Positions 1 to 23,600 of a DNA stretch of 64,000 nucleotides are shown one piece after another; positions within the stretch are counted from its first letter, which is position 1; the number at the start of each line of letters is the position of its first letter. The notes below the pieces were generated by a model. The model was not told the DNA's origin. It did not search any database and worked only from the letters and a program-made list of their open reading frames with translations. Where the stretch lies: contig BTVY01000001.1 of the NCBI GenBank assembly GCA_045863335.1, positions 200,671 through 264,670 on the forward strand, in the 5' to 3' direction. A program made the translations under genes and the position numbers. This stretch comes from Candidatus Hydrogenedentota bacterium (GTDB lineage Bacteria; Hydrogenedentota; Hydrogenedentia; Hydrogenedentales; SLHB01).

Positions 1-3000
1 CGCTTCAAAAATAGCGCGAAGGGGCAATTCCATTTCGAACGCGGAACGAATCCGTGCGACCGCCTGCGTCGCTTTCAGCGAATGACCTCCAAGATCGAAG
101 AATCGCTGGTGCCTGCCGACGAACTCCAATCCGAGTACGTCGCAAAAGATAGATGCGATCCGCGTTTCCGCTTCGTCAACTGGCGCTTCAATACTCTCTG
201 GGGCGCGCGTGTCGGCGGGAACCGGCAGGGCGGTGCGGTCAACCTTTCCAGTCGGGGAAAGCGGAATCGACTCTATTTCCACGAACGCCGCGGGAACCAT
301 GTAGGAGGGGAGTACCGCGGCAAGCGCGTCTCGCAGACAGCCGTTCGCGCCGCCATTCGCCTCGGGGACGGTATACGCCACCAACTGCGGGTCCCCGGTG
401 GCATCCGATTTCACGGCGACGACGGCATCCGATACGCCGGGGATTTCCCGCAAGGCGCTTTCGATCTCGCCCAGTTCGATCCGGAATCCGCGAAGTTTGA
501 TTTGGTCGTCCGCGCGTCCAAGGAATTCAAGCGCGCCGTCGGGGCGGAACCGCACGAGGTCGCCCGTCTTATACAACCGTTGCGCGTGCCCGTTTATCTG
601 GACGGACAGGAACCGGGCGCCGGTGAGGTCCGGCCGGTTCAGGTAGCCGTGCGCCAAAACAGGCCCCCCGATGTACAGTTCTCCCGGTACGCCTATCGGA
701 ACGGGTTGCCGGTTCGCATCCAACACATAGACTTCCGCGCCGGGAACCGGATACCCAATGGGAACGGCATCGCGAAACTCCACCGCACATTCAAAAAGCG
801 CCGCGCAGACCGTGATCTCCGTTGGACCGTACCCGTTAAAGAAACGGCGACCCTGGGTCCACCTGCGCGTAAACTCAGGGGGACACGACTCGCCCGCGCT
901 GATCAGCACGCCCAAGTCCGGGAGGCTCGACGGATCGAGCTGCCGGATCATGGCAGGCGGCAGGGTTGCCATGCCGATGTTCTCGTCTCTCAGCAACGCG
1001 GTGAGCGTATGCGGGTCGGAAAGCGTCTCGGCATCGGACAACACCAAGGTCGCGCCCGCACCAAGGGCGGGGAAAATCTCCCAGACAAAGGCATCGAAAC
1101 TCATGGACGCGAACTGCAGAACCCGCAGTCCTTCGCGAAGCACGAATACGTCCGCGCTATAGGCCATGAGATTGGTCAAGCTGCGATGGCCAATCAGCGT
1201 GCCTTTGGGTTTTCCAGTTGATCCGGAAGTGTAAATGACGTAGGCGACGTCGTCGGGCGTCGGGCCGCCACCCGGATTCGTATCCGGCATGGCATCCAGT
1301 TCGCCATGGGCGGCATCGAGACAGATCGTTTCCGGATGATGGGGCACGCGCTCGACGCAACTCGAAAAAGTGAGCAGCGCGTGCGGCTGCGCGTCTTCGA
1401 GCATGTATCGCAAGCGCTCCGACGGATATCCCGGGTCGAGAGGAACGTAGGCCGCTCCGGCTTTCATGGCGCCCAACATGGCGACGATCATCTCCACCGA
1501 ACGCGGCAGAGAAATGGCGACGAGCTTCCCGCGACCGATGCCGATCTCCTTGAGATGATGGGCAAGCTGGTTGGCGCGCGCGTTCAACTCGCGGTAGGTC
1601 AATTCATTGCCGTTGTATCGCAACGCGACCGCGCCGGGAGTCTGGTCCGCCCTCTGCTCGAAACGCGCAACGGCGATGTCCGCCGGCTCGACCGCGGGTG
1701 CGGTCCGGCTGAACGCGTGAAGGAGCTGTTCGCGTTCGGCATCGGAAAGGTACTCGATCGCGTCGATGCTCGCATCCGGCTCATCGAGGGCGCGTTCGAG
1801 AAGCAGCGCATAGTGTTGAAGCATCCGCTCCATGCGCGCGGACTCGAAGAGATCGGAATCATACTCCAACGCAAACGTCAGGCCCGAAGCCGATTCATTG
1901 ATGGCCATGGTGACGTCGAACCGCGAACGTTCGTTGATCGTGGGCACGCGGCTCAGCGTAAGCCCCGGCAAGTGGAACTCAGACTTGGGCGCGTTCTGCA
2001 AAACGAACATGACCTGGAAAATCGGCGAGCGGCTCAGGTCGCGTTCCGGCGCGAGTTCTTCGACGATCCGGTCGAAGGGAACGTCTTGATGACCATACGC
2101 CGCCAAGGCCGTTTCGCGGACGCGTCCAAGCACCTCGCGGAAACTGGGCGCGCCGTCCAGTCGTGTGCGCAATGCCAGCGTGTTGACGAAGAATCCGATG
2201 AGCGATTCCAGTTCGCGCCGGCCCCGGTTGGCAATGGGCGTGCCAACAACGATATCGGACTGGCCGGTGTAGCGGTACAGGAGTACGTTGAACGCCGCGA
2301 GGAGCGCCATGTACTGCGTCGCGCCTTCCGCCTGACACATCGACTTCACGCGTTCGGCAATCGTGCGCGAGATGGTTGCTGTCACACGGGCACCGCGGAA
2401 CTTGCGTACCGCCGGCCGGTGATGGTCGGCGGGCAAATCCAGATACTGCGGAGCATCCCGCAAGTGCTCACGCCAATAAGAGAGCTGGCTTTCGAGCACC
2501 GCGCCCTGCAACCACGCGCGCTGCCACGCGGCGAAGTCGGCGTACTGGACCGGAAGCGAAACAAGCGCGGGTTCGCTGTTTGAGACGCAGGCGTCGTAGC
2601 TCGCGCAGATCTCCCGCACGAGCACGCCCATGGACCAGGCGTCGGAGATGATATGGTGCATGGCGACGGCGAGCACGTGTTCGGTGTCACCCAATCGATA
2701 TAACGCAACGCGAAAGAGAGGACCTTGCGCAAGATCGAAAGATTGATCGACCAATGCGGTCATGTGAGATTCAAGTTCAGTCTGTTGCGCCGCGTCGGGG
2801 AGATCCGTCAGATCGACTGTCTCAAGCGCAAAAGAGATCCCATCAGAAACACGAAGCGCGGGTACGCCCTCGCGATCGACGAAGGTTGTGCGAAGAATCT
2901 CATGCCGTGCGACGATAGTTGCGATGGACTGCTCCAGCGCGCGGCTGTTCAATTCGCCAACCAGCCGGAACCCGGCGGACATGGTGTAGGCGCCGTCGCG

Positions 3001-6000
3001 CGCGCCCAGTTGATCCAGCACCCAGAGACGTTGCTGGGAGAACGAGAGCGGCATGGCCTCGTCGCGCGGCACCGGCACGAGCGCAGGGGCTTGGTCGCCC
3101 GTCTGCTCGTTTCGCAACGCGTCGATTCGTGCGGCGATTCCTGCGACTGTCGGTTCTTCGAATATCGCGCGCAATGGAATTTGGACATCGAAGGTGTCGC
3201 GAATGCGCGAGACCACCTGAGTCGCCATGAGGGAGTGTCCGCCGAGGTCGAAGAACCGGTCCGTAACGCCGACGGGTCCTCGGGTAAGAACCTGTTCCCA
3301 AATCCCCGCGACCAACTCTTCGGTAACGGTGCGCGGTGCGACATGCTCACCCGCCACTTCGCCCCACGCCGAGGGCGCGGGTAACGCGCGACGGTCGATC
3401 TTGCCGGTGGCGGTTCGCGGCAACGCGTCCAATACTTGGATTGACGCGGGTACCATGTACTCGGGCAACTCACGCGCCAACTCGCTGCGGAGTTTGGCCG
3501 GGTCCGCCGTCGGCTCCGACGCGGAGACGATGTACGCGACCACGCGCGGACCACCTGAGTTCAATTCCCGCAGCACTACGACAGATTCGGTGACCGAAGC
3601 GTCTTGATTGAGCAACGATTCGATTTCACCGGGGTCGACGCGATATCCGCGTATCTTGACCTGGAAGTCCTTTCGGCCGAGGCATTCGATGGTTCCGTCG
3701 GCTCGACGACGACCGAGATCGCCGGTGCGGTAGAGGGTCGTTCCCGGCGTATCGGGATCGGGCCGGAATGCGGAGGCGGATTCGTTGTCGCGATTCCAGT
3801 AGCCAAGCGCGACGTGAGGACTGCGAACGACGATTTCCCCGAAGACCGGCTCTTCGCCGCCGTGAGCATTCAGCAGCAATAACTCGGTGCGCGCGACGGG
3901 GGATCCAATAGGCACGCGCGCGCGGGCGGCCTCTCCTCCATTCTCGATTTCAAATGCACAGGTAAAGGACGCTTCCGCGCTGCCGTAGAGATTGATGAGG
4001 CGGCATTCGTGCGCAACTATCCTGCGGAACCGGTCGATGTCTTCGCGCCGGACTTCTTCGCCGCCGAGCACGACGGCGCGGAGACTCGCGATGCGCGAAT
4101 CCCTGGTGAGCGCTGCAGCAAATGCGCGGAAGACGGTCGGCGTGCTGTGGTATACCGTGACGCCGGTTTCCTGAAGCCAGTTCCACGCCTCGTAAAGGCT
4201 CTCGCTCTTGAGGTCGATGGGGCACAGGGTTGCGCCGTTGAGCAGCGCGCCGAAGATATCCATTACGGCGGCGTCGAACCCGAAGGACGAGAACAAGCTC
4301 AACCGATCGTCCGGATCGATATCTAACGTTCGCGCGTAGGCGTCGATGTAATGCGCGACATTGCGATGGTTTTGAACGACGCCTTTCGGCTTTCCGGTGG
4401 AGCCGGAGGTGTAGAGGATGTATGCAGGCGATTCAGGATCGCCATTTACGCCATCGTGCGAATCCAGGTGCTCAAACGATTCGATGGCGATCACCGGACA
4501 ACGTTCTCCGGCGATGGCACGTGCGCGCTCCAAAGAGGTATCCGTCGTGAGCAAGGTGCCGATCTGCGCGTCTTCGATCATGAATTGGAGACGCGCCTCG
4601 GGATAGGCCGCATCCATGGGAACGTAGGTCTTACCCGCTTTCAGCGCGCCAAGGAGTGCGGCAATCATGGGCGCGTCGTGTTCAAACATCAAACCGACGC
4701 GCGACCCCACGGCGTATGTCGCCTCGAAAATACCTGATGCAATCTGAGACGCGCGCCGATCCAGCTCCGCATAGGTCCAACGGTGGTTTCGCGTGTGGAC
4801 CGCAATCGCGTCCGGGGTCGTCGCGGCTTGCCGCTCGAAACGTCGATGGAGCGGCGTTGCGCCGTCGAATGGGTCATCGCCTACCGGAATTGACTCGCGA
4901 GCGGCCAGCGGTATATGGGCGACGGATGCGTCGGCCTGCGCGCAGATCGCGTCGAGTACTGCACCCAAATCACGCAAGAACTGCTGAATCGTTGATTCTT
5001 CAAAAAGGTCACGGTTGTAGACCAGCATGAGCCGGGTCGTCGCGCCGCGAGGCCGCACGTAAAGGGTTAAATCAAATTTGGACTCGGGTTCGCGGCGGTA
5101 GACGCGTTCCACGGCGATATCGCCCATGTCAAGGCCATCGCCGCCCATGTTGATCATGTTGAACAGGACTTGGAAGACGGGCGTCCGGCTGAGGTCGCGT
5201 TCGGGCTGAATCTCCTCCACCAACTTTTCGAAGGGGAGGTCTTCGTGCTCGAATGCATGCAGGACCGTATCGCGCGTCCGGCGCAGGAGCTTGCGGAATG
5301 TAGGGTTTCCCTCGAACCGCGCGCGCAGGGCTACGGTGTTGACGAAGAACCCGATCATGCCCTCCGTGCCGGGGTAGCGGCGTCCGGCGACCGGCGAGCC
5401 GACAACAAAATCATCCTGGCCGGTGTACCGGTACAAGAGCACCTCGAAGGCCGCAAGCAACGTCATGAAGAGTGTCGCGCCTTCGTCTGCGCTCAATTTG
5501 CGAAGGGCGGCGATCGTCTGCGAATCCAGTTCCAGGTACTCGCGACCGCCGCGGAACGTCTGGTATGCGGGACGGGGACGGTCTGTCGGCAGTTCAAGCG
5601 GCGGCGGCGGCCCGGCCAGTTGTTCCCGCCAGTACAGCACGCGCTCGTCCATGTCGTCGTCGAGCCAGGCGCGTTGGATACGCGCGAAGTCGGCGTACTG
5701 GAGCGGAAGCGCATCCAGATCGGGCAAGCGTCCTTCCGAGAAACTCTCGTAGTGCTCCGCCAACTCGCGCAACACGACGCGCATGCTCCACCCGTCCGCG
5801 ACAATGTGATGGAGCACGACCGACAGGACGTGCACGTCCGGCCGCAGCCGGATAAGATACGCGCGCATGAGCGGGGCATTCGACAAATCAAACGGCGTGC
5901 GCGTAAATGCGTCCACCTGTTGCCGGAGACGGCATTCCTCGTCGCCCGGGCCTTCGTCGAGCGTGCACTGGGCGACGGCGAAACTGACGTCCTGCGCGAT

Positions 6001-6378
6001 CACCTGCACCGGCTGGTCGTTGAACGCGGCAAAGGACGTGCGCAGCGTTTCGTGGCGTTGCACGATGGCACACAGACTTTGCTCGAGCGCGGCGACATCC
6101 AGCGCGCCCGTGAGCCGGTAGGTCAGGTGCATGTTGTACGTCGAACGGCCCGGCTCGAGCTGATCGAAGAACCAAAGGCGGCGTTGCGAATAGGAAGCCG
6201 CGGCATGCTTGCGGCGTTGGCCGAGTAACGGCGCGATCTCCGGCTTGCGCGCTTTCAATGCATTGCGCAGTTCGGCGGAGAGGCATCCTTTCGGCGCGCG
6301 CAGACACAGCTCATCCCCTTCCGCCCAGATGTGGGCGCCCCTCGCGATGACCTCTGCAAGGAGGGCGGCCGCGGTCAT
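1..6378 (-). CDS. NRPS, partial (3' end beyond window): N-terminal docking domain-C-A-T-C-A-T
   Basis: Not in ORF track; translated by hand from ATG 6378 (ATGA overlap with PKS stop), same frame at position 1. N-term [31 protein letters not shown] (TubC-N-like). C1 HHIVADG ~5790-5813; A1 YTSGSTGKPKG, FDAAVMDIF; T1 GGHSL ~3230-3245; C2 HHIISDAW ~2636-2659; A2 FDAFVWEIF, NGYGPTE; T2 GGHSL ~76-90. Long antisense ORFs across the gene share one register, consistent with a single frame. Confidence 0.95.
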   Translation of the reverse strand, partial: MTAAALLAEVIARGAHIWAEGDELCLRAPKGCLSAELRNALKARKPEIAPLLGQRRKHAAASYSQRRLWFFDQLEPGRSTYNMHLTYRLTGALDVAALEQSLCAIVQRHETLRTSFAAFNDQPVQVIAQDVSFAVAQCTLDEGPGDEECRLRQQVDAFTRTPFDLSNAPLMRAYLIRLRPDVHVLSVVLHHIVADGWSMRVVLRELAEHYESFSEGRLPDLDALPLQYADFARIQRAWLDDDMDERVLYWREQLAGPPPPLELPTDRPRPAYQTFRGGREYLELDSQTIAALRKLSADEGATLFMTLLAAFEVLLYRYTGQDDFVVGSPVAGRRYPGTEGMIGFFVNTVALRARFEGNPTFRKLLRRTRDTVLHAFEHEDLPFEKLVEEIQPERDLSRTPVFQVLFNMINMGGDGLDMGDIAVERVYRREPESKFDLTLYVRPRGATTRLMLVYNRDLFEESTIQQFLRDLGAVLDAICAQADASVAHIPLAARESIPVGDDPFDGATPLHRRFERQAATTPDAIAVHTRNHRWTYAELDRRASQIASGIFEATYAVGSRVGLMFEHDAPMIAALLGALKAGKTYVPMDAAYPEARLQFMIEDAQIGTLLTTDTSLERARAIAGERCPVIAIESFEHLDSHDGVNGDPESPAYILYTSGSTGKPKGVVQNHRNVAHYIDAYARTLDIDPDDRLSLFSSFGFDAAVMDIFGALLNGATLCPIDLKSESLYEAWNWLQETGVTVYHSTPTVFRAFAAALTRDSRIASLRAVVLGGEEVRREDIDRFRRIVAHECRLINLYGSAEASFTCAFEIENGGEAARARVPIGSPVARTELLLLNAHGGEEPVFGEIVVRSPHVALGYWNRDNESASAFRPDPDTPGTTLYRTGDLGRRRADGTIECLGRKDFQVKIRGYRVDPGEIESLLNQDASVTESVVVLRELNSGGPRVVAYIVSASEPTADPAKLRSELARELPEYMVPASIQVLDALPRTATGKIDRRALPAPSAWGEVAGEHVAPRTVTEELVAGIWEQVLTRGPVGVTDRFFDLGGHSLMATQVVSRIRDTFDVQIPLRAIFEEPTVAGIAARIDALRNEQTGDQAPALVPVPRDEAMPLSFSQQRLWVLDQLGARDGAYTMSAGFRLVGELNSRALEQSIATIVARHEILRTTFVDREGVPALRVSDGISFALETVDLTDLPDAAQQTELESHMTALVDQSFDLAQGPLFRVALYRLGDTEHVLAVAMHHIISDAWSMGVLVREICASYDACVSNSEPALVSLPVQYADFAAWQRAWLQGAVLESQLSYWREHLRDAPQYLDLPADHHRPAVRKFRGARVTATISRTIAERVKSMCQAEGATQYMALLAAFNVLLYRYTGQSDIVVGTPIANRGRRELESLIGFFVNTLALRTRLDGAPSFREVLGRVRETALAAYGHQDVPFDRIVEELAPERDLSRSPIFQVMFVLQNAPKSEFHLPGLTLSRVPTINERSRFDVTMAINESASGLTFALEYDSDLFESARMERMLQHYALLLERALDEPDASIDAIEYLSDAEREQLLHAFSRTAPAVEPADIAVARFEQRADQTPGAVALRYNGNELTYRELNARANQLAHHLKEIGIGRGKLVAISLPRSVEMIVAMLGAMKAGAAYVPLDPGYPSERLRYMLEDAQPHALLTFSSCVERVPHHPETICLDAAHGELDAMPDTNPGGGPTPDDVAYVIYTSGSTGKPKGTLIGHRSLTNLMAYSADVFVLREGLRVLQFASMSFDAFVWEIFPALGAGATLVLSDAETLSDPHTLTALLRDENIGMATLPPAMIRQLDPSSLPDLGVLISAGESCPPEFTRRWTQGRRFFNGYGPTEITVCAALFECAVEFRDAVPIGYPVPGAEVYVLDANRQPVPIGVPGELYIGGPVLAHGYLNRPDLTGARFLSVQINGHAQRLYKTGDLVRFRPDGALEFLGRADDQIKLRGFRIELGEIESALREIPGVSDAVVAVKSDATGDPQLVAYTVPEANGGANGCLRDALAAVLPSYMVPAAFVEIESIPLSPTGKVDRTALPVPADTRAPESIEAPVDEAETRIASIFCDVLGLEFVGRHQRFFDLGGHSLKATQAVARIRSAFEMELPLRAIFEA

Positions 6379-9300
6379 AAGCGCTCTTCCTCCAGTTCCT
6401 CTCCGGAACCGGCTATCACACGCGAGAGCGTTTCATTGGGCAGATCGTATTCTAGGATCGCGGAAATGCGCTGGGCCCAGTCGCCGAGACGGTTCGGCAG
6501 TTTCGCGCGCTTCCACGCGTCGGCAAGCGTCGGATCGATCGAGGTATGCTTCATGAAATTCGGATCGCCGATGGCACGTGCTTTCGCGCGCACGCCGTCG
6601 GTCATGCGGCCTTCCCCGTAGGGATCGAGCACGGCGGGTTCGAACGGCACGTCGAGGAACGTGCACATGCCGCGCATGATGCGTTCGGGATCGGTAACGA
6701 GTTCCTCGTAGCGCACCGGGAACTGCCGCTCCTCCGGCACGCCTTTCAAGAACTCGATGGTATTCTCGTTGTGCGACGCCCACACCTCTTCCGCGAGCAG
6801 ATAGGGATCGGCATGACCGAAGTCGAACATCTTCCCCGTACGATTCTTCACGTAGGATTCGATGACCGCGTAGGGATGGCGGTAGAGATAGATATACTTC
6901 GGGTTTTCAAAGAGATCCTCGGCGCGCTCCATGGTCTCGCGGCGGCCGGTGTAGGTCGGCGACTTGTCCACGAGCAGCTTGGGCGCCACGCTTTCCTGAA
7001 GCTGTGTGAACACGTCCTGGATGAGCGTGTCCTCCGCGAACATGCGTTCGATAAGCGCTTCCGCGGCGTCGGCATCGAGTCCCTGGGCTTCCATGAACGC
7101 GCGCTGAAGTCCGTCACCGAGGTAGTTGCCTTCGCCGAGGAACGTGCGGCGATCCTTCATGGAATGGAAATGAAGGATGTGCAATTCCGGCGGGCTGAAG
7201 AGCTGCGGGTGCCCTGCGAGCATCACACGCAATAGCGTTGAGCCGGACCGCGGCGCGGACAGCAGAAACGCGCAGGGCGGGTTCTTCCGTTCCGGTTTGG
7301 GCGGAGCGACGATCTTGCCCCTGGCCTTGTTGATGTTGGCTTGAATGAAGCCTTCCGGCGGCGGCGCTTCGCCTTCGCGCTTGCGCTGCATGATATCCAG
7401 CTCGGTGCCGATGTACTCGGCAAGACCCGCCAGCGAGGGCTGCTCAAATACCTCCCGAGGATGAATGCGGATCTTCAGATCGCGACCGAGATTGCGAATC
7501 AGGTCCATGACCATGATGGAATCGAGACCGAGATTGACCACGTTCTGGTCCACCGGCACCGCCGCGGGATCGGTGTGAAGCACTTCGCCGATCGAATTGC
7601 ACAGTTGCTGTTCGATGAGCTTCCGGCGCGCCTCGCCTTCGGACTCGAGGATCTGCTTGCACCGCTCGCTCGGCACGGCGGATTTCCTCGCCTGGCCCGC
7701 AACGTTGGAGAGGAACGGCGTGCCTTCTCCGGTGTCGAAGAGGGATTGCAACGCAGGCCAATCCGCATCGACTACGCCGACCTGTGCGACGTCTCGACCG
7801 AGCAGCATGCCGAACGCGGCAAGGCCTTCATCGGGATCGATGCTGGCGATGCCTTGTTGCGCAAGACGACCGCCGCGATCCGGCTGGGCCGCCATGCCCA
7901 CTTCGGCCCAGGGGCCCCAGTTGATGCTGAGCGCGGGCAGCCCCTTCGCGCGGCGGCAGGCAGCAAGAGCGTCGAGATAGGCGTTGGCCGCGGCGTAGTT
8001 TCCTTGCCCCACGGAACCGAACATGGACGCCGCGGACGAGAACAACACGAAGAAGTCGAGTTCCGCGTCCGCGAAGGCGCGGTGCAGGTTCCATGCGCCT
8101 GCCACCTTGGATCGGCCCACGGTCGTGAAGGACGCGGGGTCCATGTCGTGGATAAGTTGATCGTCGAGTACGCCCGCGGCGTGAATGATGCCACGGATCG
8201 CCGGCCACTGTTCATCCCGGTATTGCGTGAGGAACGCGGTGAGTTGCGCGGCGTCCGACACGTCAACGGCAGCGACGTGAACGGATGAGCCGGCGGCTTC
8301 AAGCTCGCGGACGGCGGCGATGTTCTGTCCAGCGCGACTCGCGGGATCGGTTTTCGACCACTGGTTGCGCGGCGGCAAGGCCGTGCGCGCCAGCAACACG
8401 AGGCGGCGCGCGCCGTGTTGTACCAGCCAATGCGCCAGCTTGGTTCCGAGGCCACCGAAACCGCCCGTGATCAAATACGCGCCATCGGCGCGAAACGCTA
8501 CGTGCGGCGACACCTCAGTCTCGGCAAGTGGAGTCACACGCGCGCCGAATCGGTTTGCCCCACGCAGGGCGACCATAGTCTCGCCATCTTGCGCAAGCAA
8601 TTCGTCGGCCAAGCTCGAAACAGCGCTATCGTCCGGCACGTCGATCAGCTTGCCCATCACGTCCGGGTGTTCCAGCGCGATGCACCGGCCGAGCGCCCAC
8701 AATGGGGCCTGCGAAAGATTGGGCTGTTCACCGTCCGCAATCGCCTGGGCGGATTGCGTCACGATGTACAGGCGTGGTGCGGTCGTCGCGAGCGCGCGTT
8801 TCGCAAGTGCTTGCGCGACGAGCAAGGTGCTGCGGCAAGTTGCCGTAAATTCATCGAGCGCTTTGTTTCCATCTTCCGCTTCGGACGAAACGCGCTTCGG
8901 CAACACAATCACGCCGAATCGACCAGTGCCGTTCGAGTTGAAGGCGGCGTCCAGGCTCTTGTCGATATCTTCCGCACGGACCGATCCGGCGTTCGTTGCA
9001 GCGAGTCCGCGCGCGGTGAGTTCGGCGACAAGCCCGCGCGAGAATTCGTCGTCTCCACCGAACACGAGCCAGGGGCCTGAGTCGTTCATTCGCGCGGCTT
9101 CGGGAAGCGATTCCCACTCGACCGTGTGGAACCACCCCGCGAGCTTGGCGCGTTGCTCTTCGCTGATAGCTGTGGCCGTCGCGCCATCGCTGGCCCGGCC
9201 GCCCAGTGCCTGAACGATGTCGTTCGACGCGCCGGGTTTTACTGTGAACCAATGGCGCTTGAGTTCGAAGGGGTACGTCGGCAGCGCAACGCGCCGGCGC

Positions 9301-12300
9301 GGATGATCCGCATCGAAGGCCTGCCAGTCGAGTTCAACGCCGTTGACCTGCACGGTTGCAGCGGCGGTAAGCAGCGTGCGCCAATTGTCGGCGTCCTTGC
9401 CCAGTGACGGAAGCCACGTCGCATCCGCGTCCGGCAGGCAGCGGCGGCCCATGCCGATGAGGGTGTTGGCCGGGCCGACTTCGAGGAACACCGATACGCC
9501 ATGATCGGCGAGGGCCCTCATGCCGCCATCGAACAGCACGGCGTCGCGAATGTGATCGCGCCAGTATTCGGCGTCCAGCGTCTCCCCGCATTCGAGCGTC
9601 TTGCCGGTGCGGTTCGACACAAGCGGAATGGTGAGCGGCTGGTAGCTGACGTCCTTGGCCACCGCGTGGAACGCATCGAGTATCGGGTCCATCAAGGGCG
9701 AATGGAAGGCGTGGGACACAGTCATCTTGGTGCACCGGACGCCTTGGGCAGAGAACTGTTCGACGACGGCATCCAGCGCATCGCCGACCCCGGACACGAC
9801 GACCAGGTTCGGGCCGTTCACCGCGGCAATGGAGAGGGCCTTCTCTTGGCCCTTGAGCGCGGCGGCGACGGTCTGCTGATCAGAGAAGATGGCGGCCATT
9901 TTTCCGCCCGCGTGAAGCGACTGTATGAGACGCCCGCGTTCGGCGATGAGCCGCAGTCCGTCTTCCAGACTGAACATGCCCGCAAAGCACGCGGCGGCGT
10001 ACTCGCCGACGCTGTGGCCAATCACGTAGTCGGGAGTAATACCCCACGAGCGCCAGAGTTCCGCGAGCGCATACTCGAGCGCGAAGAGCGCCGGTTGCGT
10101 GTACGCCGTTTCGTTGATGGGCGACTCGCCCCCCTCCGCCGGATACAACACGGAGAGCAGCGGCTGCTCCAAATAGGGCTGGAGGATCGCGTCGCAGCGG
10201 TCGATGCTCGCACGAAACGCCGGTTCGGTCTCGTAGAGTTGCCGTCCCATTCCCGCGAACTGGGCGCCCTGTCCCGTAAACAGGAACGCAAGCTTCGGCC
10301 GGAATCCGGAGCGCACCGTGCCGCGGATGACGTTCGGCGCGGACTCGCCTTGGGCAAATTGTTTTAACGCCTCGCCTAGTACATTTCCGGCATCGTCGGC
10401 TTCCAACGGTTCCGTAAGAATGGCCAGGCGCTGTTCAAAAACGCAGCGCGTTGTGTTGGCGGAATAACAGAGGTCACGGATCGCGGCGGGATTCTCAAGC
10501 TCGCGGGACGCGTAGGTTCCGGCGAGATTCTGCAACGCCGTTTCCGTGCGCGCGGAAAGCGTCAACACGTGGCGCGGCCGATCGGGCTGCGACGTCTCGG
10601 CGCGCGCGAGCGTGATCGGGGCTTCTTCAAGCACAACATGACTGTTCGCGCCGCCGAATCCGAAGGCGCTGACGCCGACTAGACGGCGTTTCGATCCGCG
10701 CGGCCAGGGCAGCGGTTCGGTCGGAATCTGGTAGCGGGTTTCGTCCAGCTTTATCAGTGGGTTCACTTTGTCCAGATGCAAATGCGGCGGAATCGTCTCG
10801 TGCTGCAGCGCGAGGACGGCCTTGATAAGCCCAACGATGCCTGCCGCCGGTTCGAGATGTCCCACGTTCGTCTTGGCCGAAGCAATGGCGCAGATGTTGC
10901 CCTCGTCACGTCCTTCGGACAGGACGGTTTGAATCGATTCAATCTCGATGGGATCGCCAAGCGACGTGCCGGTACCGTGGGCCTCGACATAGGCGATCTC
11001 CGAAGGTGCGACGGCCGCGTTCTCCAATGCGGCGCGAATGACCGCCTGTTGCGCCTTCGAACTTGGCGCGGTGAGGCCATTGCTGTGTCCGACGTGATTC
11101 ACCGCCGTACCGCGGACGACCGCGAGCACGTTGTCGCCGTCGGCCAAGGCGTCGGAAAGCCGCTTCAACACGACTAACCCGCAACCTTCGCTGCGCACGT
11201 AGCCGTTTGCCGCCGCGTCGAAGGCCTTACACCGTCCGTCCGGCGCGAGCATGCGCGCCTGCGACAAGGCGATGGTCGCCAAGGGCGACAGGATGACGCT
11301 TACGCCGCCGGCGAGGGCGATGTTGCATTCGCGGTCGCGCAGGCTCTGGCAGGCTTGATGCAAGGCGACCAACGCGGACGAACAAGCCGTATCCACAGAT
11401 ACACTGGGGCCGCGCAGATCGAGCAAATACGAAAGGCGGTTCGACGCGATGGACTGGGTGTTGCCCGTGGCGACGTAGGCGTCGTTCTCCGCGCCAAGCA
11501 GCAGTTGGAGCTGCATGTAGTCAATAGACGAAACGCCAATAAACGTACCCGTGGCCGAACCGGCAAGACGGTCGGCGCGGACGCCGGCATTCTCAAAAGC
11601 CTCCCAGGCCACGTGCAAAAGCAATCGCTGCTGGGGATCCATGCTGGCCGCTTCACGCGGGGAGATGTTGAAGAACGCGGCGTCGAACTTATCAACGTCC
11701 TCTACGAAGCCGCCCCACTTCGTAATCATGCGGCCCGGCGTCGCCAGATCGGGATCGTACAGCGTATCGAAGTTCCAGCGATCCGCGGGAATCTCGCGTA
11801 TCGCATCGCCACCATCGCGCAGCAACTCCCAGAAGGCGTCCGGATTCTTTGCGCCGGGGAACCGGCAACTCATGCCGACGATGGCGATGGGCTCGCCGTG
11901 GGTGCGGGAAATCGTGCTCGTCGCGTCCGGCGACCACGTGCCGGAAAGATGGCGGGCCAGGGCGTCGATGCAGGGGTACTCGTAGACCAGGGTGGGCGAC
12001 AGCGTACGCCCGACGACGCGCTCCAGATCGGCGGCGAGTTCGACGGCAGCCATGGAATGAAGACCGAGACTCGAGAAGGGCTGGCGGATATCCACCTGTG
12101 CCGCGTCGACGTTCAGCCGAAGGGCAATGCGGTGCGCGAGATATTCGCGCAGGTGCACGTAGCTCTTCCCCGCGTCCGTAGACGAAGTGTGCGGGACATT
12201 CGCAATCGAATCGTCAACAGATGAATCGGCGATCGATCTGCCGACCAGGGGAAGTGATTCGTCCTGAAACGCTTTGCGGCAGGAGCGGCGCTGAATCTTC

Positions 12301-13919
12301 CCGCTCGACGTCTTCGGAATCGACCCCGGTTGAACCAGCAGCACCGCATGCACCGGCACTTCGTGTTGTTCGCCGACCGCCGCACGAATCGTGGCCGCAA
12401 CCTGCTCCACATCCAGCCCATCGACGGCATCGCGCGCGACTTCCTGGGCGACGACGAGCAACTCACCGCGTGGGTCTTCGATGGCAAAGGCCGCTCCGCA
12501 TCCCGGGCGCAGCGCGGGATGGCACGATTCGACCGTGAGTTCGATGTCCTGCGGATAATAGTTAATACCGCGAATGATAATGAGGTCTTTGAGACGACCC
12601 GCAACAAAGAGTTCGCCGTCCTGCAGGATTCCGAGATCGCCGGTGCGCAGGTAAGGGCCTTCGCCGCTATCCGCAAGGGTTCCCCAGAAGGTGGCGGCCG
12701 TCTCGTCGGGCCGGTTCCAATAGCCCGACGCGACGCTGGGCCCTTTCACCCAAATCTCGCCGACCTCGCCGTCCGGACGGGGCAGGCAAGTATCGGGCGC
12801 GATGATTCGAACATCCTGATCGGCTGCGGGAGAACCGCAGCCCACGAGCGTCCGGTTCCGTGCGTTGTCTTCCGGGAACTCGCGTACCGCCATGCTGCTG
12901 CCGCGACGCGCGAACGATACCGCAAGCGTGGCTTCGGCAAGACCGTAACAAGGGAGAAACACATCGCTCCGGAATCCGGCGGATTTGAATTTCTGCGCAA
13001 AGGCATCGAGCGTGCCCGGCCGAATCGGTTCGGCGCCATTGAAGGCCACGCGCCACGCGCTCAGGTCCAGAGCGTTGCGTTCATCGTCGGCGATCTTGTC
13101 GACACAAAGCTGATAGGCAAAATTCGGCCCGCCGCTGACGGTCGCGCGGCGCTGGCCCATGGCTTGCAACCACGAGGCGGGTTGCTTCAGGAAGTGCAAG
13201 GGCGACATAAGCGTCGAATCGCAGCCGACAAAGGGCGGAATCAGCACGCCCGCCAGCAAGCCCATGTCATGGAACTGGGGCAGCCAACTGAGCACATGAT
13301 CGTCTGCGGAAAGCCCCGTCGCTTCTCGTATGTAGTTGCAGTTGTGAAGCAAATTGCCATGGGTCACCATCACGCCCTTGGGCGACGACGTGGAACCCGA
13401 GGTGTACTGCAGGAAGGCGAGATTGTTCTCGTCGACACCAGGATTGCGCCATACGTCCGGATCCGCTTCACTGGCGTCGGTCGTAACCCAGCGCAATCCC
13501 GCCAGCGCCGGATGCTCCTGTAAAAGCATTTGCGCCGCTGCCAGGTACTCCGAAGTGGTTAATGCCAGCGTCGCCTGGGCGTCCGCAAACATCGCGAGGA
13601 GCCGCCCGAGCGTCCTTCCGGGACGTGGAGGATAGGCCGGAACCGCCGTCACACCGGCGTAGAGGCATGCGTAAAAAGCGACGTTGAACTCGATGCCGGG
13701 CGCAAAGAACAAAAGGGCGCGGTCGCCCGGTTTGCTAACGGACTGAAGTTCCGCAGCAACGGTGCGCACACGCTCTTCGAATTCGTGATAGCAGACGTTC
13801 TGCGTTGTGTCCGATCCGGAAGCGAGAAGCGAGAAGATGATGGAATCCGGTTGCGCTGCCGTCCGCTCAGCGAGTACATCGATGAAGTTTCGGGTTCTGC
13901 TCAGGGGAAACTTCTCCAA
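6375..13919 (-). CDS. Type I PKS: FAAL-ACP-KS-AT(malonyl)-KR-ACP-sulfotransferase, no TE
   Basis: [22 protein letters not shown]; ACP1 GLHS; KS DTACSS, HGTGT; AT GHSVG and HAFH; KR GGFGGLG, LDD, YAAAN; ACP2 GLDS; [16 protein letters not shown]...PPELH...DKSPTY; ends [12 protein letters not shown] start uncertain. Confidence 0.95.
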
Positions 13920-14287
13920 ACAGGGCCGCCGTCAAGCCACCCTCAATGTTGCAGCGTCATCACTCTCCGGCAACCCGCCAAGATTTCGAGCATGCGCTAA
14001 CCTGTATGAATGCCGCGAGCCGTCGCCCGCGACGTATACCAATCCGCCGCGCATACCATGCGCGTTGGCCGCTTACGCCGCCACCAAAGCGGCAACCGAT
14101 AAAGTGAATCCCCCGATAGACCGGCCGTCGAATTCGCCTCCAAGATGGTGACGGCCAAGTAACGCAGCATACAGCTCGTGGGTGGGAAATTAATGGCGAT
14201 TCCCACATCCTCGACCAGCACCAATTATACTCTAGTCCGCGATTCGCATTACAAATACCGGCTATACAGGGGTTCCTCAAGGCAAGG

Positions 14288-14303
14288 ATACTACATATTG
14301 TGC
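14288..14303. promoter_or_regulatory. NrdR-box-like imperfect palindrome in the AT-rich region upstream of the PKS
   Basis: ATACTACATATTGTGC matches consensus acaCwAtATaTwGtgt at 13/16; weaker copy at 14332-14347. Confidence 0.3.
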
Positions 14304-14460
14304 GGAAATGCCAGCGTGTACAGCCTCAAAAACACTAAATTGGCGTAATTGAGGCGATCTTCAAACCGCAATTTCGTCAATAATTTCCCTTAAAACTCGA
14401 AAGATGTTACCAAAATGTGCCGACTCGGTTCAAATTGGACGACAACCATGAATTTTGGTT

Positions 14461-16326
14461 TCAGGTATTCCGCGAAGGTTCCGAGGGCTCCATACCCAGG
14501 AGGGCGCGAATCTCGGCGTCGAGGATTTGCCGAATCGCGGATGTGACGGGTAAGGCGGGAATTGTCGTCGTCCCTCCAACCGCGGGCAGCGTCATGGGTC
14601 TGTACGCGCGATTCTGCCAGGAGTACCAGCGAAGCGATTCGCTTTCCAGGGGACGGTCGAACTCGAAGCGGACATGAACCGGGCGTCCGTCGTAGTTGAC
14701 GCCAAGTACGGTGACGCGCATGCCGTCCGTTTCCACAACTTGACCGGTCTCCATGGCGGACACGGGCAGCCGGCAAAAGAAGAAGGACCAGGGGTACTCC
14801 ATCCAACCTTCGGGAATGGAAAGTTCCAGCACGTTTTGGGATGGACGATGGACGACGATCTCCCGGTTGCCGCTGTAGAGCACCCACATGGATTTCGGAA
14901 CGGGCTCCCGCTTGGCGGAGCGGAGCAGGGGCAACATGGCGTACATGATGTCGCCGGTGGCGTTCACGATGATGAGGCGGTCTTCTGTGAGTTCTTCGTC
15001 CTGCGGCAGACTCGCGTTGCCCACATCGACGATCTTCCTAACGTAGTGCATGGAGTACGCGTTCGCCGGAAGCATGATGGGAGACACGATCAAGTGGAGA
15101 ACAATCAGGAATGCGGCCACAAATCGCAACGTCACGGGCTTGCACGATCCGTCCGTGAACCACGTCGTTCGATCCGAAACGCCGCCCAGAAACGCGCCGA
15201 GCAGCCCCATCCCGCCGATACCGACGAGCATAAGCAAGCGATACTGGGGAACGGACGAGCAATAGGGAATCGCGCACAACGCCATGCCTGCCGCGTAGAA
15301 CCGGGCCGCACGATTCGCGCGGAGGAGCGGCCAGAACAGCCACGTCAGCAGCACGACGATTCCCGCGGCGAAGGTGATGTAGAGGCCGGTCCAAAAAGGC
15401 GGCAGCAGCGTGTGGTAGATGGGGTCCGGGAACATGAACTGGGAATAGAGCAGCACCGGAAAGAACTTGATTACGGCAAAAACAAAGCCGACGGGATCGG
15501 CAACGGGATCCGTGTAGAAGCTCGACGCGGTAACGCCGTAGCCGAACCACGAATAGAGGATTCGCCAGATCACAACGATGACGGCATAAGGCACGAGGGA
15601 CAGCAGACGCGCGCGCCATGGCGCGGGGTCCATGAAGCACGCATACGCAAACAGATAGCCGGTCACGGCCACGGTGCCCTCGCCGGAGAAGAGTCCAAGC
15701 GCGAGCATGATTCCTGCCAGGACACCGCGGCTCGATTTGCCGGTCTGACGCCAACGATCGTGGGCCAGCAAAACAAACACCGCGAACATGGCGGAAAGGA
15801 TCGCGTTACGGTTGGAAAGCCAACTCACGGAAAGACCGTGCGCGGAATCCACCGCGAAGAGCAGGCCCGCCAGACCCGCAACCCACGCCGGAGTGATGTG
15901 GCGCTGATAAAGTCGCGTCGTGGCGAACGCGAGGATGCCGTAGAGCAGCATGCTGTGAAGATGCATGATCCAGGTATGGCTTCCCCACAGGATAAAATCG
16001 ACATAATGACTGAGGGATGAAATCGGCCGCCAGAAGGAGATCTTCCATTCAGGGTCGGCCCACCAGGGAACGATGCCACGGGCGAGGTATTTCTCATACT
16101 CTTCCGGCGTGCCCTTGCCAAAGGAAAACGTGTCGAGCGTGGCGTTGTCGACCTCGGGCAGCCCGGGCGACCCCATGAACACGGCGCTCCAGTAATAGTC
16201 GTCCGTGACGCGGCCCACGAGCAACGACGGCGCGGTCAATACGCAGGCGATGATGGCGATCATCAACGCGGCGCGCCTTCCGTGAACGCGCGTAAACCGA
16301 GTCTTTAGAATGGATAGCCCAGTCAT
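14461..16326 (-). CDS. Polytopic membrane protein, GT-C-like (PMT/TMTC-type) with C-terminal soluble domain
   Basis: Many hydrophobic segments; acidic pair VTDDYY after TM1; FWRP motif. Start moved to ATG 16326 (MTGLSIL). Confidence 0.6.
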   Translation of the reverse strand: MTGLSILKTRFTRVHGRRAALMIAIIACVLTAPSLLVGRVTDDYYWSAVFMGSPGLPEVDNATLDTFSFGKGTPEEYEKYLARGIVPWWADPEWKISFWRPISSLSHYVDFILWGSHTWIMHLHSMLLYGILAFATTRLYQRHITPAWVAGLAGLLFAVDSAHGLSVSWLSNRNAILSAMFAVFVLLAHDRWRQTGKSSRGVLAGIMLALGLFSGEGTVAVTGYLFAYACFMDPAPWRARLLSLVPYAVIVVIWRILYSWFGYGVTASSFYTDPVADPVGFVFAVIKFFPVLLYSQFMFPDPIYHTLLPPFWTGLYITFAAGIVVLLTWLFWPLLRANRAARFYAAGMALCAIPYCSSVPQYRLLMLVGIGGMGLLGAFLGGVSDRTTWFTDGSCKPVTLRFVAAFLIVLHLIVSPIMLPANAYSMHYVRKIVDVGNASLPQDEELTEDRLIIVNATGDIMYAMLPLLRSAKREPVPKSMWVLYSGNREIVVHRPSQNVLELSIPEGWMEYPWSFFFCRLPVSAMETGQVVETDGMRVTVLGVNYDGRPVHVRFEFDRPLESESLRWYSWQNRAYRPMTLPAVGGTTTIPALPVTSAIRQILDAEIRALLGMEPSEPSRNT

Positions 16327-16511
16327 CGGATCCCGTCGTTGGTGGATGGAATGATGCAGCACACCCAACCGCGTGCATGACGAAGACCGATCTAATCCCC
16401 GGCGGAGGGCGCGAGTACGTCGCGACATGATACCGGATTCGAGCGTGGAGAGTACAGACAACCGTTAAGGCCGCGAGGTCAAAACCCCCGTCCCAGTCGG
16501 ACCCTGGATAA

Positions 16512-16610
16512 ATCGCTATCGGTATCGCTATCGAGATCGGGATCGAAAAAGGATCTGTGGTGCCTCAGATTTCGATACCGATTCCGATCCCGATAGCGAT
16601 ACCGATATCG
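16512..16610. repeat. Inverted repeat built from ATCGNN hexamer tandem units
   Basis: Left arm cgctatcggtatcgctatcgagatcgggatcgaaa pairs with right arm tttcgataccgattccgatcccgatagcgataccgatatcg. Confidence 0.85.
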
Positions 16611-16611
16611 A

Positions 16612-16635
16612 GCGGGGCGCCCGGAGGCGCCCCGC
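16612..16635 (-). terminator. GC-rich hairpin just after HEAT-gene stop (terminator or stabiliser)
   Basis: Perfect 10-bp stem GCGGGGCGCC/GGCGCCCCGC, loop UCCG on minus strand; no U-tract. Confidence 0.5.
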
Positions 16636-16645
16636 GTGTTGAAGA

Positions 16646-18625
16646 CTATCCCTGAATCTTGCTCTTGATTTGTTCCGTAGCCTGCGCGGCTTCGGCTTTT
16701 ACTTCCTCGTCCGCGAGGTAAGGTTCAACCAATGCCAGCGCGCGCTCGTCGCCGATCTCGGCGAGACCCGCGAGCACCAAACGCTTGTCGTCGGCGCTGG
16801 CGGCAAGTTTGGATGCCTCCTCGTACAGCGCGAGCGTTTCCTCGACCGGCCGGTCGCCGCCCTGTCGCAGCAGCCGCAGGAACCCGCGGAACGCGAGCGT
16901 CTTGTGCGTATTGTTGTCAGACGCCGACGCGATCTGACGCAGATCGTCGAGCGCATCCGCGGTAGGCCAGTCAGCCAAAGCCTTGACCGCCGCGTCTTTG
17001 ACGGGATCGGCTTTTGCAGACGCTACCAGGTCACGCAACTGCGGCAACGAACTCGGGTCGGCGATGCGTCCTACTACCCGGACCAGCGATGCACGAACTT
17101 CGGGCTTACCTTTGATGGTGGAGAAGGCCTGCGCGATTTGTTGCGCGCCTTTCTGCGGCGGATTAGTCCGTTGCACCGTCGATACGACGGCGTTTTCCGC
17201 GGCGGTCTGCGACGGATCGCCGTTGACCTTGACCAGGAGACCGATCAACGCCGCGAGGTCGCCTTCGTTCGCCAGTGCACCCAGGGCATCGAAGGACGCG
17301 TTGCGAACCGATTCGTCCTGGTCCGACGCGGCTTGAAGCAGCGTCGGGATTGCGGACTCGGCGCCCCGTGTCGCCAGGGCTTGGATCAGAACCGTCTTTG
17401 CGGGAGCTTGCGTATCCTGCATCGCGGTAACGATCGCGCCGTCCACGTCATCACCGCGAAGGGCGCCGAGCGTGGCGCGGGATACGCGCGCGACTTCCGC
17501 GTCATCCGACATGGACAAGGCGGCCAACTGCGAAACGGAGGACGCGTTGCCGACGGTGGCCAAGGCTTCGAGCGCCGCGATCTTCACGTCCGGATCGCTG
17601 CTGTCCAGTGCAGCCGTGACGGCCGGTAGCGCTTCGCCATCTTCACGCGCGCGCAGGGCGTACAGCGCGACAAGTTGACCGTGGGCGTCGAGACTGGGAA
17701 GTGCCGACGCCAACTCCGCGGTGACCTTTCCGCCCTCGAGCGTGCGCAACGCGCCAGCGGCAATCGCTTGAAGTCCAGCGTCGCTCCCTTTCAGCAGTTC
17801 GATCAACATCGGCAGGGAATCGGCGCCTTCCACGGCTACCAATCCCTCGATCGCCGCGATATGGGCTTCGCGCGATTCGGAATCGCTGTTCAGCTCCGTG
17901 AAGATCGCCTTCGCCTTCCCCTTCTGTCCGTTCTGCAGGTAGTTCGACGCGCACATGAGGTAGCCGTTCGTGATGGCCGGCTTGAGTTCTTCCGATGCAC
18001 TGCCACGCGCCTTTGCCAGGGCGTCAGCGGCCTTCTCACCCCCAATCCGGCCGAGCGCCGTCGCGGAGGCCTTCGCAACTGCCGGGTCTGGATCGTTCAG
18101 AAGGGTAGCGAGATCGGCAACGGCTTCTTCCTGCCCACGCATGCCGATGGAATTGATGATGCCGACCTGTACGCGGTCGTCGGCGTTTCCAAGGGCGGTC
18201 AACAGCGCGTCATCGGCGGCTTCACCCTCGATGCTTTCGAGGGCGTAGCGGGCCATGTCCGAGTGCTTCTCGTCGGTCAACATTTTCGCCAGCGCGGGTA
18301 CGCTCGCGTCCGTGCCGATGACGTAGAGCTGACGGCACACGAAATCCTTGCAGTCGTACGTGGCGTCCGACCCGAGGATCTCGATGAGCCCCTGCTCGAT
18401 CTGCTGGCGCATGGCGGCGTCGCCGTAGGACTTCGTGCAGTAGTCTTGCACGACGCTGAGCATCTCGCGGTTCTGGCCGAACTCGTAGGTGCGAATTTGC
18501 TGAAGCGCATCCGGCAGCGACGGAGTATCCTGCGCGAGGGCCGGCATACCCGCAACGACCGCCACTAACGCCGCAACCATGGCCCATCCGGCGCGGCTGT
18601 TTTTTTTATTGATTACGCGAATCAT
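16646..18625 (-). CDS. Secreted HEAT-repeat protein
   Basis: Signal peptide ending PALA-Q; repeated helical 'VAKASATALGRIG'-type units; purine-rich RBS before ATG 18625. Confidence 0.85.
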   Translation of the reverse strand: MIRVINKKNSRAGWAMVAALVAVVAGMPALAQDTPSLPDALQQIRTYEFGQNREMLSVVQDYCTKSYGDAAMRQQIEQGLIEILGSDATYDCKDFVCRQLYVIGTDASVPALAKMLTDEKHSDMARYALESIEGEAADDALLTALGNADDRVQVGIINSIGMRGQEEAVADLATLLNDPDPAVAKASATALGRIGGEKAADALAKARGSASEELKPAITNGYLMCASNYLQNGQKGKAKAIFTELNSDSESREAHIAAIEGLVAVEGADSLPMLIELLKGSDAGLQAIAAGALRTLEGGKVTAELASALPSLDAHGQLVALYALRAREDGEALPAVTAALDSSDPDVKIAALEALATVGNASSVSQLAALSMSDDAEVARVSRATLGALRGDDVDGAIVTAMQDTQAPAKTVLIQALATRGAESAIPTLLQAASDQDESVRNASFDALGALANEGDLAALIGLLVKVNGDPSQTAAENAVVSTVQRTNPPQKGAQQIAQAFSTIKGKPEVRASLVRVVGRIADPSSLPQLRDLVASAKADPVKDAAVKALADWPTADALDDLRQIASASDNNTHKTLAFRGFLRLLRQGGDRPVEETLALYEEASKLAASADDKRLVLAGLAEIGDERALALVEPYLADEEVKAEAAQATEQIKSKIQG

Positions 18626-18651
18626 GGTTCTATTCCCTTCCTTCCAGACGC

Positions 18652-19998: not shown

Positions 19999-20034
19999 GA
20001 TTGTCTCCTTTGAACGCTCACTCAATTCGCTCGC

Positions 20035-20140
20035 GGAAAAATAGGGACTGTTACCATTTAACTTCTGAACGATTGCCTTCTTCTCGATATCTGCGCAGTT
20101 AAATGGTGACTGTCCCTATTTTTCCCCGTCCCTATTTTTC
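20035..20140. repeat. REP-like inverted repeat (GGGAC[AT]GTCACCATTT family)
   Basis: 29-bp arms 20035-20063 and 20097-20125 with 2 mismatches, plus partial copy 20128-20140; related copy at 58266. Confidence 0.85.
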
Positions 20141-20158
20141 TCCACCTGTTTTTCTCCC

Positions 20159-21496: not shown

Positions 21497-21501
21497 AGAC
21501 T

Positions 21502-21924
21502 TCAAATTCCTGCTCCACAGTTTGGGCAACGGTGTGCGCTGCCGTCAACGCGCGTGCCGCAATAGGTGCAACTGCGGTACTGCGGCTCCGGCGAATGCAT
21601 TGCGATCGCTTCGGGCTCGGGACGGTAAAGCTCGACCGGTTCCGGTTCGTCATGAACAACCGCGCCTGGGGCTCCCCCTTTTACAAATGCGATAACGACG
21701 GCCACAAATCCGCTGATGGCCATCATGGTAAACACAATGCCAAACAGCGTGAAGATGACGGGCGCGCCCATAGCCCGTGCCGAGGTCGTCCAGAATAATG
21801 CGAAACCGACGACCATCAGCATTACGATCAATCCTGGGATCAGAACGAGGCGGCCGCCCGGCTGGGTCCCGCGCGAAGCGCCGTAGTGCGTGCGTACCCG
21901 TTGTCTTCGGTGCCGTCGTCCCAT
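21502..21924 (-). CDS. Small two-TM protein with C-terminal zinc ribbon
   Basis: Two hydrophobic helices; CTYC...CPNC; starts 2 nt after prpD stop. Confidence 0.75.
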   Translation of the reverse strand: MGRRHRRQRVRTHYGASRGTQPGGRLVLIPGLIVMLMVVGFALFWTTSARAMGAPVIFTLFGIVFTMMAISGFVAVVIAFVKGGAPGAVVHDEPEPVELYRPEPEAIAMHSPEPQYRSCTYCGTRVDGSAHRCPNCGAGI

Positions 21925-21926
21925 GC

Positions 21927-23447: not shown

Positions 23448-23600
23448 CCGCCTCCGTGCAACAAAACCGGTTCGCAGCGATTGGGCACCGTGAGACGCGT
23501 AGTATTGCACTTGACGGCGGGTATTTCCAGAGCGGATATGCGATCAAGCCATCCATGGTTGCGGATCGCACTCGCCGGGCTGTTCTACGGCGCTCCCAGG

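Follow-up and report, generated by a model that had tools for sequence, protein, structure and literature searches.

A thioesterase-less, sulfotransferase-terminated polyketide synthase and its putative hand-over to a nonribosomal peptide synthetase in Hydrogenedentota: a candidate route to 3-O-sulfated acyl peptides

The stretch considered here, called the window throughout, is 64,000 nucleotides of a Candidatus Hydrogenedentota bacterium genome (contig BTVY01000001.1; G000:C1:200671-264670, where G000 denotes the organism's own genome). Positions are window coordinates unless a locus label is given, and window features are on the minus strand unless marked otherwise. Window 1-13919 is filled by two long minus-strand frames, a polyketide synthase (PKS) gene and a nonribosomal peptide synthetase (NRPS) gene. 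The PKS (6375..13919, 2514 aa; open reading frame, translation and Pfam) comprises a FAAL (fatty acyl-AMP ligase), an acyl carrier protein (ACP1), a ketosynthase (KS), an acyltransferase (AT), a ketoreductase (KR), a second carrier (ACP2) and a sulfotransferase (ST), followed by a candidate docking tail and by no thioesterase (TE). The pair is a recurrent, uncharacterised variant of known parts, and the idea behind it is already hinted at in print. The product favoured here, with modest confidence, is an N-(3-O-sulfo-acyl) tripeptide in which the sulfate is retained. Three assumptions lie behind this: the ST acts on the substrate bound to ACP2, the first condensation domain of the NRPS (C1) takes up the sulfated chain, and the sulfate is still there in the product; the steps up to the 3-sulfooxy-acyl-ACP2 would follow from family membership.

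The layout itself is plain. An earlier reading of this DNA (the original prediction) had described FAAL-ACP-KS-AT-KR-ACP-ST with no TE after the ST, which Pfam analysis of the 2514-aa product bears out, and a database cluster representative, P0003, is identical to the window PKS and of equal length. The same reading had placed an ATGA overlap before an NRPS that opens catalytically with a condensation (C) domain. In the sequence, the stop (...cgc tta TGA) does share letters with the next start (ATG A..) at 6375..6378, and a TubC_N domain precedes C1. The NRPS gene occupies 1..6378 with its first 2126 codons and there runs off the window; in full it spans G000:C1:196465-207048 and encodes 3527 aa, and PKS and NRPS together take up G000:C1:196465-214589. 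Retrieval of the sequence beyond position 1, proposed earlier as a check, adds C, adenylation (A), thiolation carrier (T) and TE domains (L001:15466-19671), so that the whole protein reads dock-C-A-T-C-A-T-C-A-T-TE, i.e. three modules and a terminal TE. Extension by at least two amino acids had been proposed; the extension modules are there, and the count is corrected to three, with release by a TE. E-values range from 1e-30 to 1e-228, and with long intact frames and matches of this order chance is not an issue.

Is the ST of the olefin synthase type, and is it intact? The domain (6429..7337, residues ~2195-2497; Pfam Sulfotransfer_3 at 2217-2428, E 6.5e-31) aligns end to end in PDB searches with the CurM ST (4gbm, E 5.3e-98) and with the ST of a Synechococcus olefin synthase (Ols) (4gox, E 8.7e-84). 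A 15-residue stretch and SPPELH are common to the window ST and these solved CurM/Ols structures, and identity to CurM is 51% over 94% of the ST region. The motif PRSGST (2223-2228), which we take to be the loop that binds 3'-phosphoadenosine 5'-phosphosulfate (PAPS), and PPELH (2243-2247) are both present. A set of 144 ST domains was cut from the 120 best database homologues, the window PKS and a second protein of the own genome. The 81 TE-linked STs of this set have 68 columns with conservation of 95% or more; 62 of these are identical in the window ST and the other six differ conservatively (I/L, F/Y, K/R, M/L, Y/F, S/A); all polar invariant columns are retained. When 12 TE-less homologues are compared with the window, the identity of their STs runs 94, 89, 89, 81, 71 ... 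51%, compared with 92 ... 62% for the KS and 81 ... 47% for the whole protein, i.e. the ST is level with or above the KS and always above the protein as a whole. Such figures, taken from the alignments, are what a strongly constrained domain shows, and the window ST looks functional. The own genome also carries an adenosine 5'-phosphosulfate (APS) kinase (240 bits), so PAPS can be made.

What follows the ST differs from an olefin synthase. Pfam finds no thioesterase or alpha/beta-hydrolase family anywhere in the PKS, and only ~17 residues remain after the ST domain; with no TE fused there, the window PKS is not an olefin synthase. Those last residues form an acidic tail (6378..6428) that ends in EELEEERL, a candidate short linear docking motif conserved in TE-less ST-terminal proteins. 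Fourteen of the 120 best ST homologues, the window protein included, have this FAAL...ST architecture without a TE at ~2400-2600 aa (one of them is a 2140-aa partial), and all 14 distinct proteins end in an acidic tail, mostly EEERL and otherwise EEDRI, QEERL, QDERV or EEERI. The E-E-R of the tail forms discriminating columns between TE-less and TE-linked STs.

On the other side of the junction, the NRPS begins with a TubC_N beta-hairpin docking domain (6220..6366, residues 5-53; PF18563, E 6.7e-12; 45.8 bits, where the curated cut-off is 26), and this N-terminus is kept in 5/5 orthologues. According to PMC9113145, C-terminal short linear motifs of <15 residues bind such N-terminal beta-hairpin domains, the contact being made by the final five residues with two salt bridges; the motifs are listed there after oxidase, Cy, PCP and ACP domains, an ST not being among them. 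A C domain starts ~55 codons after the ST in every one of nine related loci that have this ST type and downstream DNA (L004-L009, L022, L024, L027), which answers the earlier suggestion to look for other ST-terminated PKSs followed by an NRPS. There are also single-chain proteins in which PKS, ACP, ST and C are continuous (P0037, P0046, P0059, P0076, P0083). The ATGA overlap, the TubC_N domain and the conserved tail are consistent with physical coupling of PKS and NRPS, and together with the intact C1 motif and the recurrence of the arrangement they lend support to the original prediction that the PKS is wired to C1. A complex prediction for NRPS residues 1-60 against the last 40 PKS residues, with 5-row alignments, gave a score of 0.09 against a mark of 0.32 and counts neither way. 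As an observation apart, Pfam also assigns dehydratases (PF14765, PF21089) to P0059, P0076 and P0083, beside the KR and ST; if that dehydratase (DH) is active, the ST in these three cannot sulfate the beta-hydroxyl.

Phylogeny agrees with a distinct group. In a FastTree analysis of 143 ST rows with tails removed, the 14 tail-bearing STs lie on one side of a branch with SH-like support of 98; other PKS-borne STs adjoin this clade, and NRPS-embedded STs make up a separate deep group. Strong PKS orthologues (65-100% identity) occur in all five other genomes of the genus, and a 58% orthologue is found in G040, a genome from another family of the same order. The organism also has the TE-bearing form. 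Contig C18 of the own genome carries, at L013:5407-14922 on the minus strand, a separate FAAL (597 aa), an ACP-KS-AT-KR-ACP-ST-TE protein (2279 aa) and an Sfp-type phosphopantetheinyl transferase; with this PKS beside the window PKS, TE-bearing and TE-less forms are kept together. Similar second ST-PKS copies are present in G001, G002, G004 and G005. The possibility that the window PKS is a decayed Ols was considered and is ruled out by its own ST clade, apart from that of the C18 paralogue, and by the orthologues across the order. PMC11730487 describes the arrangement of a stand-alone FAAL with ACP-KS-AT-KR-ACP-ST-TE as rare among cyanobacteria. The TEs that follow CurM-type STs are of two unrelated kinds: 59 cyanobacterial domains are of the alpha/beta-hydrolase type and 22 domain instances of the PF00975 type (P0041-P0122, L013:6253-7230). 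The latter, the C18 protein included, have ordinary NRPS/PKS TEs and not the CurM TE as best PDB matches.

The domains ahead of the ST are those needed for a 3-hydroxyacyl substrate. The FAAL (12249..13868, residues 18-557; Pfam AMP-binding and AMP-dom_DIP2-like) has FAALs as its best PDB matches (7r7f, E 1.5e-156; 3kxw, 9e-129; FadD23/FadD32/FadD28; 3pbk), and with a PP-binding domain following it makes the start of a lipopeptide-type assembly line. Pfam finds PP-binding in two stretches of the protein: ACP1 has its phosphopantetheine site LGLHS at 12054..12068 (residues 618-622), and the best-scoring stretch is ACP2 (7410..7610, residues 2104-2170), with the serine motif LGLDS at 2130-2134. 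Between them lie the KS (10773..11894, residues 676-1049) with DTACSS, HGTGT and NVGHLE, presumably the catalytic Cys/His/His; the AT (9333..10286, residues 1212-1529) with GHSVGE and HAFHS, of which HAFH is taken to indicate malonyl-CoA specificity; and the KR (7902..8483, residues 1813-2006) with GGFGGLG, YAAAN and an LDD at 1918-1920 that we take to mark a B-type enzyme, giving the (3R)-hydroxyl that the CurM ST uses. By domains and catalytic motifs the module KS-AT-KR-ACP is complete for 3-hydroxyacyl-ACP formation, and Pfam finds no DH in it. The FAAL would thus adenylate a fatty acid and load ACP1, the KS and AT would add one malonyl unit, the KR would yield a (3R)-3-hydroxyacyl-ACP2, and the ST, as in CurM/Ols, would move sulfate from PAPS onto the 3-hydroxyl. 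To this point the scheme is that of Ols.

From here on the route would be that of a lipopeptide. The acidic PKS tail would dock on the NRPS beta-hairpin domain, and C1 (4915..6198, residues ~61-488; Pfam) would join the 3-sulfooxy-acyl thioester to amino acid 1. C1 has an intact HHxxxDG motif (HHIVADG, 190-196) and PDB matches to Txo2 (E 1e-98) and Txo1 (3e-93), with the starter C domain of CDA at only 2e-12; at this resolution no subtype signal marks it as a special starter type, since the top PDB matches of C1 and C2 are both Txo2/Txo1 with similar E-values. In a separate comparison, 14 post-ST C domains differ from 18 others of the same proteins, whose rows are kin, at NRPS residues 76, 82, 332 and 336 (P76, N82 versus T, G332 versus N in the usual ...ANR stretch, P336; window ~5371-6153). 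Module 1 continues with A1 (3400..4821, residues ~520-993; Pfam; an unusual NLYGSAE core and an 8-residue insert), whose code, ~DAM(H/S)VLLFTK, is the same in 4/4 full-length orthologues examined besides the window's own, and with T1 (3124..3315, residues 1022-1085; Pfam PP-binding).

The second module has C2 (1720..3057, residues 1108-1553; Pfam, PDB matches; HHIISDA), A2 (229..1662, residues 1573 to ~2050; Pfam) and the start of T2 (1..162; Pfam; LGGHSL at residue 2096), which runs off the window. The third, with the TE, is read from the adjoining DNA given above (Pfam; C3 HHAVSDG, TE GWSFGG). Codes were extracted by motif anchors and fixed offsets, without an indel for A2, and give DAWTIAGVCK for A2 and DAWFLTNVVK for A3. 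From signature tables we take these, with low confidence, to be Phe-like and Leu-like. The two further modules would accordingly add a Phe-like residue and then one that is Leu-like, and release would fall to an ordinary type-I TE. The product is probably a linear acid, as the hydroxyl that usually serves for lactonisation would be blocked. Does this TE derive from the enzyme that accompanies STs elsewhere? Its PDB matches are ordinary NRPS/PKS TEs (7crn, 4zxh, NocB, FAS, Pks13), and the CurM TE is not among the 38 obtained. Descent from, or a function shared with, the ST-adjacent TE was rejected: of the best 120 homologues of the NRPS TE, most are the ends of ordinary NRPSs and just three carry an ST family, and the 33% identity between the two own-genome TEs (E 4e-47) is equalled in score by unrelated NRPS TEs.

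Several observations weigh against a retained sulfate, or against the scheme that leads to it. The ST family is known for activating the hydroxyl as a leaving group, and by analogy the window enzyme may do the same. Just two in-domain columns split TE-less from TE-linked STs (E->D at 2269, F->Y at 2356), which gives no sequence sign of a changed ST role. Post-ST C domains, compared in the 14 and 18 rows above, show no gained Lys or Arg to greet the sulfate. The A1 code is not known to match a specificity signature, the ST tree comes from FastTree alone with long-branch warnings and an unsure deeper order, and two metatranscriptome runs gave short, partly fitting pieces only. In the strongest rival, the sulfate is installed and then leaves mid-line: either it is eliminated while the chain sits on ACP2 or in C1, so that a 2- or 3-enoyl chain forms, or it is displaced intramolecularly with closure of a ring, and a sulfate-free lipopeptide would result. 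That outcome is doubtful, with an appreciable minority share of our expectation. It fits an ST that belongs closely with the 'activating' group of CurM/Ols, barely changed from TE-linked STs, and a KR in a module with no DH, where the ST could replace the dehydratase. The family role in Ols, leaving-group formation, is stated in PMC11730487, where Ols is written with the same order FAAL-ACP-KS-AT-KR-ACP-ST up to the ST. A related version, that C1 or the TE spends the 3-sulfate on forming an enoyl amide (Z- or beta,gamma-), or a small ring, for example by attack of the amide nitrogen or carboxylate at C3, is unlikely, if somewhat short of far-fetched.

Retention of the sulfate is nevertheless favoured, because a DH would dehydrate more cheaply, at no cost in PAPS. 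In Ols and CurM the adjacent TE couples elimination with decarboxylation; the reaction needs both the fused TE and the decarboxylation, and neither is available in the window PKS. Comparison of the window with G040 shows no other conserved enzyme, whether extra domain or neighbour, that could exploit the sulfate. In-line STs that leave their sulfate in place are also documented: DysB of dysinosin biosynthesis, an NRPS with an in-line ST, leaves it on glyceric acid (PMC6520454). Might the ST simply be idle, i.e. inactive in vivo, limited by PAPS or directed to another hydroxyl? The product would then be a plain 3-hydroxyacyl tripeptide, possibly closed by the TE to a 13-membered depsipeptide. 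A FAAL-PKS-KR line followed by an NRPS and a terminal TE is the standard layout for beta-hydroxy lipodepsipeptides, and the TE here is of the ordinary NRPS type with few ST-bearing homologues. An idle domain is nonetheless rather improbable, as the ST is among the most conserved domains over the 12 homologues and keeps its PAPS loop and polar invariant columns, in a genome with an APS kinase. Least credible, to the point of being scarcely worth expecting, is that the PKS still makes a terminal alkene via a TE acting in trans, the NRPS acting on something else. The own genome does hold an ST-TE PKS, FAAL and transferase on C18, and an alpha/beta hydrolase gene (L001:14461-15438, plus strand) lies just past the NRPS stop. 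The C18 TE, however, forms one chain with its own module. The hydrolase gene is convergent; its product has a signal-like N-terminus and GHSFGG and matches esterase/haloalkane-dehalogenase-like structures in the PDB with no CurM TE in the best 60 of 252, and next to the G040 cluster no counterpart exists. It is unlikely to be an intracellular releasing TE. A nearby CurM-type TE, named earlier, along with 1-alkene production, as refuting the original prediction, was thus not seen, both the NRPS TE and this hydrolase having ordinary NRPS-TE/esterase matches. The ATGA overlap, tail and docking domain, moreover, speak for the PKS being tied to C1.

How far does the cluster extend? In G040 (L019:12144-19895 and L016:92-4396) the PKS, of 2583 aa, precedes an NRPS with a single module, dock-C-A-T-TE, which is 1434 aa long and has the code DASTLAAVCK, presumably Tyr-like. 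LepA, signal peptidase and HemN lie on one side of this pair, an SMP-30-like protein and Nuo51 on the opposite side; as the pair stands amid housekeeping genes, the shared core is the two genes. NRPS orthologues are of 3529-3541 aa (three modules), with one of 2477 aa that has a TubC_N domain; taken with the one-module version of G040, the number of modules varies from one to three. In G004, of the same genus, all neighbours are syntenic (PrpD, two GFO/IDH/MocA oxidoreductases, a HEAT-repeat protein and a 666-aa membrane protein), with identities of 73% for the PKS, 57% for the NRPS, 77% for the convergent alpha/beta hydrolase and 89% for accA. Since every neighbour there is syntenic, G004 cannot delimit the cluster. 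The 666-aa polytopic membrane protein (14461-16461) has no Pfam match, lies 540 bp upstream of the PKS and is kept in G004 (77%) and G002 (59%); it is absent beside the G040 cluster. Farther upstream (16646-23510) lie genes for a HEAT-repeat protein of 726 aa, for two GFO/IDH/MocA oxidoreductases, of which one has a TAT signal, and for a protein of the PrpD/MmgE family; they look unrelated to the cluster. Two related loci are divided: on G005:C82 (L005) the ST is in a 368-aa frame apart from the 2288-aa rest of the PKS, and on G004:C24 (L014) the NRPS reads as two frames of 1220 aa and 2327 aa (P0128). Frameshifts or assembly errors may account for this, or the splits may be real.

The close relatives are metagenome-assembled genomes named 'Candidatus Hydrogenedentota/Hydrogenedentes bacterium' (L022, 99%; L023, L025, L026, L027). 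One further sequence, L024 (CAZWDH010000082.1), is 97% identical to the ACP-ST region and labelled 'uncultured Nitrospiraceae bacterium', probably a binning or labelling conflict. A planctomycete host, at first suggested by the flanks, proved mistaken. Apart from the possible source study, sequencing runs of eight studies share at least 0.2 of the sampled words, and the organism-labelled ones are wastewater, sludge or activated-sludge metagenomes. In an RNA-labelled library (X3), where DNA carry-over is possible, contigs cover 30/30 bins of window 1-17000, the intergenic 13920-14460 included. A promoter scan of 13800-16800 returned 0 sites and is uninformative. The phylum Hydrogenedentota is often met in wastewater and sludge data and is not known to have cultured producers.

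If the sulfate is retained, the two-gene cassette would offer a compact and portable way of making amino acids and peptides with a 3-O-sulfated fatty-acyl chain, i.e. anionic lipopeptides, and would decide whether CurM-type STs are 'activating' by context only. If it is spent mid-line instead, Hydrogenedentota would make acyl amino acids or peptides with a warhead beyond DH-based lines. The natural one-, two- and three-module versions constitute a series for how C domains handle a sulfated donor, with the ST-TE paralogue of the own genome as an internal control. The parts are all known and there is no conceptual surprise; as a target for genome mining the system is a good one.

How does the pair compare with known systems? 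Full-text literature searches, made without MIBiG, antiSMASH or BiG-FAM comparison, yielded no characterised line leading from FAAL, PKS and ST to an NRPS, and no mention of sulfated lipopeptides, O-sulfated fatty or sulfated fatty acyl species was found in the texts searched. The earlier remark that no characterised cluster of this layout was known therefore stands as far as that search goes. Novelty of the idea is more limited, as PMC11730487 already anticipates that ST homologues without a TE probably yield sulfated metabolites.

With Ols (Picosynechococcus PCC 7002) and CurM (curacin A), the window PKS shares the domain order of Ols, the ST family, the KR LDD and the AT HAFH. It differs in having an acidic tail in place of the TE, in a chain that would go to an NRPS and in STs that form their own clade. 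At the junction, the nearest likeness is to the TubB-TubC and Kj12B-Kj12C docking pairs, which also have a TubC_N domain before the C domain and a short charged tail upstream; unlike theirs, the window tail follows an ST domain, and its binding to the partner is putative. DysB resembles the window system, going by its description, in having an ST after a carrier and before a C domain, and so does OciA, reportedly an NRPS loading module with an in-line ST of the DysB type. In the window the order ACP2-ST and then C1 is reached across two subunits. Whereas the substrate of DysB and OciA is an FkbH-derived glyceric acid on an NRPS carrier, that of the window ST would be a PKS-made 3-hydroxy fatty acyl-ACP, and Pfam finds no FkbH family in either the PKS or the NRPS. 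Similar in general plan is MycA of mycosubtilin, where FAAL-ACP-KS-AT is followed by an aminotransferase that gives a beta-amino acyl chain and then by a C domain. Both lines begin with FAAL-ACP-KS-AT, alter the beta-carbon and hand the chain to a C domain; the modifier is an aminotransferase in MycA and a KR with an ST in the window PKS.

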